Shown here piece by piece: positions 1 to 625 of a DNA stretch of 12,639 bases. The position numbers and the translations under genes are program-made. Every line of letters starts with the position of its first letter. The stretch's first letter is position 1. The notes beneath the pieces were generated by a model, which was not told the origin of the DNA, did not search any database, and was given only the letters and a program-made list of their open reading frames with translations. The DNA comes from an uncultured archaeon. GTDB taxonomy: Archaea > Asgardarchaeota > Lokiarchaeia > Sigyniarchaeales > SOKP01. The DNA is taken from the NCBI GenBank assembly GCA_964583985.1, contig CAZOYD010000084.1, positions 1 through 12,639 of the forward strand. Direction: 5' to 3'.

Positions 1-149
1 GCCCTGATAGTCATGTTTTCTTGAATTCGCATCAGAGATTTTGAATTAGCATATTTTTCAATGTTCTCTTTATCATAATAACCAATTACATCGGAATATT
101 TGTCTTCGGGTCTTTTCCGTTTTATTTCAAATTTGTACTCATCATTCAC
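1..149 (-). CDS. Bud23/WBSCR22-like SAM-dependent SSU rRNA methyltransferase, N-terminal part (runs off the left edge of the window)
   Basis: Not in the ORF track. Manual translation from GTG at 149-147 (an in-frame TAA lies just upstream) gives MNDEYKFEIKRKRPEDKYSDVIGYYDKENIEKYANSKSLMRIQENMTIRA. The pattern RPE...YY......KY..S.....IQ..MT.RA matches the Bud23 N-terminus as I recall it (RPE...FY...EA.KY..S.R...IQ..MT.RALELL). The SAM-binding motif would lie outside the window. Confidence 0.75.
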   Translation of the reverse strand, partial: MNDEYKFEIKRKRPEDKYSDVIGYYDKENIEKYANSKSLMRIQENMTIR

Positions 150-325
150 AGAGATTTTGCCTTGATCATTTTATTTTCTGATTTAATATCAAAAATTCAA
201 GCATAAATCAAAAATTTTATTAAAATTTAAATATTTAACAACTCAGTTGTCAGAATTTTTCAAACTTAAAAATTCATAAATTAATAAAAAAATCTTGTAT
301 CCATGCATTGAATTAAGTGAATATC

Positions 326-625
326 ATGTCTGAAAAAGAAGAAAGGGTTCTTGTAAGAAAAGCTACATTGAATTTAAGAAGGAAATATGGCAGAACAAAA
401 CAGATTAACGTATTAGAAAGAGATGCTTTTATTCCAAGTTCTTTAGAAGAAGAAATAAAGGAATCTATTTTGAAGAGGAAATCTATACTGGCTTCCGATA
501 TTGCATTGAAGTATGATATTAGAATTTCTACAGTAAAACTCTTGCTTAAACAAATGGAACAACAAGGAGTAATCAAACTTCTTGATCCGTCGCTTAAACT
601 AAAAATTTATGTCCCTTCTTCCTAA
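326..625 (+). CDS. rps25e: 30S ribosomal protein eS25 (S25e)
   Basis: Basic 99-aa protein with a Lys/Arg-rich N-terminus and a winged-helix-like C-terminal pattern (ILASDIALKYDIRISTVKLLLKQMEQQGVIKLL...KIYV) typical of eS25. ATG at 326 is preferred over GTG at 317. Confidence 0.85.
   Translation: MSEKEERVLVRKATLNLRRKYGRTKQINVLERDAFIPSSLEEEIKESILKRKSILASDIALKYDIRISTVKLLLKQMEQQGVIKLLDPSLKLKIYVPSS

Follow-up and report, generated by a model that had tools for sequence, protein, structure and literature searches.

A contig-end fragment of a tail-less Bud23/WBSCR22-type methyltransferase gene, divergent from eS25, in a Loki-type Asgard archaeon

The stretch of DNA analyzed here (the window; 12,639 nucleotides) corresponds to bases 1-12639 of contig C84 in a 3.8 Mb assembly of 138 contigs. 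Its left end carries two divergent genes and the spacer between them, with the following features.

1..149 (codons 3..149), minus strand: predicted Bud23-type class I SAM methyltransferase, first 49 codons and two bases of codon 50; GTG start at 149..147
150..316, no strand assigned: divergent intergenic region between the methyltransferase and eS25 genes; 167 nt when measured to GTG 317 and 176 nt with ATG 326 as the eS25 start
206..237, no strand assigned: conserved AT-rich block of 32 nt, with the core AATAAAATTTTTGA on the methyltransferase-sense strand
317/326..625, plus strand: ribosomal protein eS25, 102 aa when counted from GTG; matches Pfam PF03297 and PDB eS25 chains
386..388, plus strand: codon of eS25 Tyr24, inside the invariant motif L-x-R-K-Y-G-R, the most conserved stretch of Asgard eS25

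The minus-strand open reading frame beginning at GTG 149, to which an earlier note on this DNA had drawn attention, is confirmed. The open frame comprises 56 aa, with only seven sense codons between the upstream stop and the GTG, and the start is sound because close homologues begin (with ATG, GTG, or TTG) at the same aligned position. At its other end the frame runs off the left edge of the window, exactly where contig C84 begins, and the gene is thus cut by the contig end; the complete gene encodes approximately 210 aa, judging by relatives and a co-occurring strain.

The remainder of the gene was not found in the 138 contigs, and an assembly with 49 codons only would fit a decayed gene, either a remnant or a pseudogene. 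That explanation is very improbable, however, given that the frame stops precisely at the contig end and that the unitigs of two salt-marsh sequencing runs (X1, the likely source, and X2, an independent run) match window positions 1-232 without a single difference and continue 403 nt leftward. Sequence databases list a protein of 210 aa, P0012, that agrees with the window fragment at 46 of 48 positions. Its only differences, E4N and K27E, equal SNPs at window positions 138/140 and 71 in runs X3 and X4, and this exact agreement identifies P0012 as the full-length allele of a co-occurring salt-marsh strain. Past the break P0012 reads 'AIELLNLP...LILDLGSGVG', and the two leftover bases of the window (GC, minus strand) fit its Ala50. 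An intact gene is present in every complete genome of the genus that was sampled. The gene is therefore whole in nature, as far as can be told, and its truncation in the window is an assembly artefact.

Searched alone, the 49-aa fragment matched no Bud23 chain of the PDB (E<=10) and no Pfam family, so the significance of its identification comes from full-length orthologues. These are 210-230 aa long and occur in 33 of 40 related genomes; the closest, from genome G022 of the same genus, is 80% identical to the fragment. Searched against the PDB by sequence, the G022 orthologue matches human BUD23/WBSCR22 (1.5e-30) and yeast Bud23 (9e-30) over residues 12-207, compared with 1e-8 for the best solved methyltransferase of any other kind. 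The corresponding HMMER values for P0012 against solved Bud23/WBSCR22 chains are 1e-29 and 2.7e-28. The catalytic domain aligns to Bud23 along its whole length, including the N-terminal cap encoded in the window, at 35-37% identity. The alignment to yeast Bud23 that the earlier note had given was reproduced by HMMER (residues 13-49 against yeast 3-38, one gap), as part of the full-length P0012 alignment rather than of the fragment alone.

The cap (RPE ... Y ... Y..S ... IQ ... R.LELL), encoded at window positions 3..149, precedes β-strand 1 and aligns to residues 7-43 of human BUD23 and 3-38 of yeast Bud23, with P14, E15, Y25, Y33, Q43, and R49 kept. Beyond it, the full-length orthologue and P0012 contain the class I SAM core, LDLGSG(A/V)G, followed by the acidic D88 after strand 2; D65, G67, G69, G71, and D88 hardly vary across the clade, and the window ends one residue short of the part encoding this core. 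The earlier note had expected ALELL and then LD(I/L)GCG to the left of the contig end, and had named the lack of a SAM-binding motif, or grouping with unrelated methyltransferases, as grounds for abandoning its proposal. Orthologues and the same-population allele show '(A/T)(I/L)ELL' and then 'LDLGSG(V/A)G', the SAM-binding motif is present both in the orthologues and in P0012, and by sequence and fold the full protein groups with Bud23 and not with unrelated methyltransferases; neither ground for abandoning the proposal therefore applies.

Eukaryotic Bud23 has 52 columns with conservation of at least 85%, and P0012 retains 37 of these, including S124, S126, Q129, W130, Q164, Y166, P167, F186, D193, P195, S197, and K202. 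A Bud23-family paralogue from the window's genome, described below, keeps 31, and generic methyltransferases of the same genome keep 16-18. The Bud23-specific motifs SxSAxQW, QFYP, and F.GG..D.P.S.K..K.YL, which belong to the substrate pocket and the C-terminal strands, are all present. Changes at otherwise conserved columns in the window's genus are C68S, G86A, and M93F. The AlphaFold model of P0012 (pLDDT 95, pTM 0.91) places a helical cap ahead of the Rossmann core, residues 1-49 contributing helices 14-17, 21-24, and 27-34 and the start of helix 37-54. In a Foldseek search of the PDB with this model, the best eight matches are all Bud23/WBSCR22 (E 1e-17 to 1e-19, TM 0.75-0.93, rmsd 1.4-2.5 Å), followed by generic methyltransferases at approximately 1e-10 and TM of about 0.5-0.64; the weaker matches include 6f5z and 6zxw. 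Identification as a Bud23-type methyltransferase gene is thus well supported, although the window itself has only a contig-end fragment.

In the archaeal proteins no match to PF12589 (WBS_methylT, the basic C-terminal extension of eukaryotic Bud23) was detected, and the 210-aa proteins end with the catalytic domain; for this reason they are classed here with the Bud23 catalytic-domain family, as a variant without the tail, and not as two-domain, eukaryotic-type Bud23. An exhaustive HMMER search returned 1067 representatives at E<=1e-3, of which 113 are near-full-length. PF12589 is found in 44 of these 113, all of them long forms (eukaryotic Bud23), and the tail-bearing eukaryotic proteins are interleaved with short forms in the search results. 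A quick maximum-likelihood tree of 115 rows separates a eukaryotic clade (SH-aLRT 99), a short-form clade containing the query (97; 42 rows), and a small clade with the paralogue (98), with two generic methyltransferases of the same genome far outside all three; taxon labels in this tree are sparse and it does not settle the branching order among the three clades. Named relatives are Asgard metagenome-assembled genomes (MAGs) with Promethearchaeota/Loki, Hod, Hermod, Odin, and Thor labels, and the short-form clade includes one member labelled Micrarchaeota. A sample of 300 genomes from the phylum gave strong matches over the full length (E<1e-47) in families f1, f2, and f6, which make up the window's class in this sample, and in families f7 and f22. 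Genomes of family f7 measure 1.3-1.4 Mb. The other families among the 300 gave weak partial matches only, and those inspected are generic methyltransferases. On sequence grounds, the window gene is best described as the start of a tail-less archaeal form of the Bud23/WBSCR22 methyltransferase, a family to which the JGI and KEGG pipelines already give the Bud23 name.

The genome also encodes a candidate partner. A Trm112-family protein of 208 aa scores 33.7 bits against PF03966 (cut-off 22) with a match spanning residues 5-165, and its N- and C-terminal zinc-knuckle halves are set apart by an insert of approximately 130-140 aa. A length of about 207 aa is conserved across Asgard MAGs, where NCBI names the relatives 'Trm112 family protein'. 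In complex models of the G022 methyltransferase with the Trm112 of the same genome, ipSAE reached 0.91 (three runs), compared with 0.00 for the best of three controls; in a benchmark, 58 of 80 solved complexes reached the mark applied to this score, as did 2 of 110 mismatched pairs. The runs have 90% or more of their contacts in common, and the pLDDT of the partner is at least 83. The predicted interface lies between methyltransferase residues 103-118 and Trm112 residues 1-17 and 163-177, on the strand-3 edge described for Bud23-Trm112 (PMC5372719). The co-folding proposed in the earlier note thus gave a model that passes its controls; since a similar Bud23-Trm112 complex has already been solved, the pass demonstrates likeness rather than binding.

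On the other side of the spacer, the eS25 gene scores 29.3 bits against PF03297 (cut-off 28.8) and matches PDB chain 9fhl_c by sequence at 9e-5. A profile of 29 eS25 orthologues matched 14 eS25 chains, archaeal and eukaryotic, at 1e-7 to 1e-5. Of the two possible starts, ATG 326 is the likelier because conservation among orthologues begins near Met4; with this start, the 176-nt divergent region given in the earlier note is correct, the distance to GTG 317 being 167 nt. Searches of species-representative genomes with a 13-row alignment as query recovered 80 Asgard loci, and in every one of them eS25 lies upstream of the methyltransferase gene in divergent orientation, with spacers of 76-174 nt (median 142). 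With the queries used here, neither eS25 nor uS10 was found within approximately 2.5 kb of the type-A (window-type) gene in families f6, f7, and f22, and the linkage is thus regarded as a feature of the window's order. The synteny suggested in the earlier note therefore holds within that order (80 of 80 loci, and family f2) but was not found in the more distant families f6, f7, and f22, which also have the gene.

Within the spacer, the 32-nt block has a mean top-base fraction of 0.88, compared with 0.57 for the remaining spacer, across 81 sequences. It holds TATA-like octamers in both orientations, which makes a shared bidirectional promoter core a reasonable reading, and the block may be a candidate for such a core. 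The conserved block is also the basis on which the methyltransferase may be co-regulated with eS25. The core AATAAAATTTTTGA is not enriched genome-wide (five sites, compared with three for a reversed control). An approximately 3x spike in unitig depth at 203-238 fits identical k-mers common to co-occurring relatives. A sigma-70 promoter and terminator scan, whose model is not applicable to an archaeon, gave no enrichment (6 compared with 4.5). Separately, an intron-containing tRNA was missed by ARAGORN at its default settings.

A second, more altered Bud23-family paralogue is present in the same genome (G000:C15, L014:1336-1995; 219 aa). Like the window gene it belongs to the Bud23 family, has a similar length, and lies near the gene of a small-subunit head protein. 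It differs in sharing only 32% identity with the window-type protein (aligned residues 55-207), in keeping 31 rather than 37 of the 52 signature columns, with the changes Q129N, W130F, and Q164E, and in forming a separate clade. Its best PDB match is Bud23 (4.5e-14), and PH0226-type methyltransferases score nearly as high. Within the window's own family the paralogue and the type A gene are not linked; uS10 lies within 1.5 kb downstream of the paralogue in 14 of 30 loci and is directly adjacent in three of the 30, this genome's among them. In the sister family f2 (G031), eS25, type A, type B (the paralogue), and uS10 form one cluster, with both methyltransferase genes in tandem.

In eukaryotes, Bud23 adds a methyl group to a single guanine of the small ribosomal subunit, at the P site. 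Considered as a whole, the findings are best explained by a tail-less archaeal Bud23 that makes the P-site m7G in 16S rRNA together with Trm112, a proposal made with moderate confidence. The strand-3 edge of the methyltransferase would pair, in the manner of yeast Bud23-Trm112, with the zinc-knuckle of the 208-aa Trm112 encoded in this genome, and the heterodimer would bind a late small-subunit precursor and transfer a methyl group from SAM to N7 of a universally conserved guanine on the P-site ridge of the 16S head. The target would be the second G of GGAAUCCCUAGUAAUCG (also written GG*AAUCCCUAG), which we take to be the equivalent of yeast G1575 and human G1639 by yeast/E. coli numbering. 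The methyltransferase gene is transcribed divergently from eS25, with the conserved 32-nt block perhaps acting as a common promoter core. The 16S rRNA of the genome carries GGAATCCCTAGTAATCG; since this G is expected in any organism, finding it here favours none of the explanations. By analogy, from family membership, we infer both the rRNA target and a role in maturation of the small-subunit head. In yeast and human it is the Bud23 protein, not its activity, that is needed for ribosome biogenesis (PMC5372719), and the cellular role in archaea could therefore differ.

Two other readings of the enzyme have to be weighed against this proposal. In domain databases the protein could pass for a class I methyltransferase of the generic or small-molecule kind (UbiE/BioC/TehB-like) that resembles Bud23 through the shared Rossmann fold only: Pfam and NCBIfam return generic methyltransferase domains and sub-threshold BioC/UbiE matches, and NCBI names the relatives 'class I SAM-dependent methyltransferase'. 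These generic names are accounted for by the fact that neither Pfam nor NCBIfam has a model of the Bud23 catalytic domain; the JGI pipeline names P0012 and its relatives '18S rRNA (guanine1575-N7)-methyltransferase'. Approximately 20 orders of magnitude separate the match to Bud23 from that to any other solved methyltransferase, with a matching gap in fold similarity. The match extends beyond the generic core to the N-terminal cap and the C-terminal strands, and 37 of the 52 Bud23 signature columns are retained, against 16-18 in the generic methyltransferases of the same genome. A generic enzyme is accordingly a highly implausible explanation.

The principal competing reading leaves the family as it is and changes the substrate. 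The protein may be a Trm112-dependent Bud23-family enzyme whose substrate is a tRNA, a translation factor, or some other nucleotide of rRNA, or the uS10-linked paralogue may be the one that makes the P-site m7G, with the window copy serving another purpose; the paralogue could also take over or share the P-site function. Two long-diverged paralogues per genome are in keeping with such a division, as are the position of the short-form clade apart from the eukaryotic clade and the C68S, G86A, and M93F changes in the window's genus. Archaeal Trm112 has many methyltransferase partners, and m7G has gone unreported at the P-site position in the archaea studied (PMC6144793). However, it is the window copy that keeps the Bud23-specific Q129, W130, and Q164, which are altered in the paralogue, and that has the stronger Bud23 score (1e-30, compared with 4.5e-14) and a close match to the Bud23 fold (1.4-2.5 Å rmsd). 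A substrate other than the P-site guanine of 16S rRNA is considered fairly unlikely.

The reference system for the proposed P-site enzyme is Bud23 of S. cerevisiae (BUD23/WBSCR22 in human) with Trm112/TRMT112 (PDB entries 4QTT/4QTU, 6G4W, and 7WTS-7WTW; KEGG K19306). Shared with it are a full catalytic domain, the SAM motifs, the SxSAxQW, QFYP, and F.GG..D.P.S.K motifs, the presence of Trm112, the conserved rRNA target, and a predicted Trm112 interface on the same strand-3 edge. Unlike eukaryotic Bud23, the archaeal protein lacks PF12589, ends at 210 aa, and belongs to a separate short-form clade; its gene is linked to eS25, its host has no nucleus, and its activity is a predicted one. The partner also differs, the Asgard Trm112 of 208 aa carrying an insert of approximately 130-140 aa that sets it apart from its yeast and human counterparts. 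To our knowledge, no U3/Dhr1-type processome context is known for the host. The archaeal Trm112 holoenzymes (Haloferax volcanii Trm9, Mtq2, and Hvo_0019; Archaeoglobus Trm11-Trm112) likewise contain class I methyltransferases, and structures of such holoenzymes (6f5z and 6zxw) are among the weaker fold matches, but the enzymes belong to other methyltransferase families with other substrates. In these holoenzymes the methyltransferase is activated through a β-zipper with the Trm112 zinc-knuckle (PMC6144793). The eukaryote-like module put forward in the earlier note is therefore upheld in part: a Bud23-type gene, a SAM motif, Trm112, and linkage to eS25 in the window's order are present, whereas the eukaryotic C-terminal tail is absent, linkage was not found in the three more distant Asgard families, and a second paralogue exists.

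The eS25 gene suggests a further, structural connection. Tyr24 is invariant in all 29 Asgard eS25 sequences and, in profile alignments to 7nwg_a2, 3j7a_2, 6zu5_SZ0, and 7qep_D5, falls on the Trp within KKKW(S/G)KGK, a motif of the eukaryotic protein (human Trp35); the archaeal ribosome chain 9fhl_c has no aromatic residue at this position. Human eS25 Trp35 has been reported in a preprint to stack on m7G1639, the product of Bud23, in a late 48S complex (bioRxiv 10.1101/2025.05.16.654455). Linkage to eS25 together with an aromatic residue at the human contact position yields a concrete structural hypothesis. Tyr24 is compatible with a pairing of m7G writer and reader, but constitutes no evidence for one. 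In its simple form, the idea that an eS25 aromatic tracks the presence of the methyltransferase was rejected, as an aromatic is present in families f11 (Trp) and f9 (Phe), where the profile detects no Bud23-type gene, and f7 has the methyltransferase gene without the aromatic; the best methyltransferase matches in f11 and f9 are generic and lack the RPE, QW, and QFYP motifs. It is tempting to speculate, though doubtful at present, that eS25 and Bud23 form a pre-eukaryotic writer-reader pair, in which a Trm112-dependent enzyme would place m7G on the P-site ridge of Loki-type 16S rRNA and eS25 Tyr24 would stack on it, as human Trp35 reportedly does when the initiator tRNA is positioned, the genes originally forming one eS25-Bud23A-Bud23B-uS10 cluster. 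If true, a detail of the way eukaryotes initiate translation would already have been put together in archaea.

According to Bourgeois 2017 and van Tran 2018, archaea have neither a protein with significant homology to Bud23 nor m7G at the P-site position (PMC5372719, PMC6144793), and the authors of the Trm112 holoenzyme study could find no Bud23 orthologue in archaea in general (PMC6144793). Among the papers searched, none combines Bud23/WBSCR22 with Asgard/Lokiarchaeota; surveys from 2021 of ribosome biogenesis in archaea leave an Asgard Bud23 out of their main text, and Birikmen 2021 includes BUD23 only as a seed factor in its supplement. For the window itself the message is smaller, this being a contig-end fragment of a gene for which JGI and KEGG already use the Bud23 name. 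For Loki-type Asgard archaea, the presence of a clear and conserved tail-less relative of Bud23, along with a Trm112 to match, leads one to expect a specific modification of the rRNA, and one more eukaryotic ribosome-biogenesis factor would date from before eukaryogenesis.

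Besides the Bud23-type methyltransferase gene that lies divergent from eS25 (type A), the genome encodes a second Bud23-family protein, whose best PDB match is Bud23 itself (4.5e-14), and a Trm112:

G000:C15, L014:1336-1995, + strand: second Bud23-family paralogue, 219 aa
G000:C15, L014:2103-2408, + strand: uS10
G000:C62, L018:1489-2115, + strand: Trm112, 208 aa

A gap of 107 nt separates the paralogue from uS10, which follows it on the same strand. Compared with Bud23, the paralogue carries the substitutions Q129N, W130F, and Q164E. In the sister Asgard family f2, it is found in tandem, placed between the type-A gene and uS10. 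Trm112 carries an insert of approximately 130–140 residues between the N- and C-terminal zinc-knuckle halves, which exceeds the helical insert of eukaryotic Trm112 in size; the protein is conserved in Asgard MAGs at a length of approximately 207 aa. In the complex model, a predicted pair of Trm112 and type-A methyltransferase from the relative G022, insert residues 66–73 are also predicted to contact the methyltransferase.

Short unitigs of 36–39 nt, at 2–4 times the depth of their flanks, occur at window positions 203–238, 310–345, and 713–751. They interrupt the metagenome graph at three places: the conserved intergenic block, the eS25 start, and the tRNA. Their k-mers are probably common to co-occurring related species. 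Among genomes of the same genus, the type-A gene often lies within 1–2 kb of a contig end (genes near contig ends in related genomes: G002:C90:341; G015:C29:912; G009:C69:1204; G022:C193:1239; G035:C435:138; G011:C21:8715). The next gene downstream in related genomes encodes a large secreted protein, and a strain-variable neighbor of the type-A gene may cause such assembly breaks, as in the window.

In Asgard family f11 (loci L179–L190), an eS25 domain with a KKW motif opens stop-to-stop frames of 212–341 aa, and this position at the start of long frames suggests a long C-terminal extension of eS25 or a fusion.

Downstream of eS25, the window contains:

714-819, + strand: tRNA-Ser(CGA), Rfam 41 bits
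851-1927, + strand: PfkB-family sugar kinase
1930-2862, - strand: Gtr1/RagA-type small GTPase, Pfam 2.4e-24

The tRNA has a 21-nt intron after position 37, and was detected by ARAGORN with the intron option only, the default run giving no detection. The listed ORFs 634–813, 692–823, and the 5′ part of 782–1927 are spurious where they overlap it. The true start of the kinase gene is ATG 851, and the listed GTG 782 is wrong. The kinase and GTPase genes are arranged tail-to-tail, and the GTPase is a eukaryote-like signature protein.
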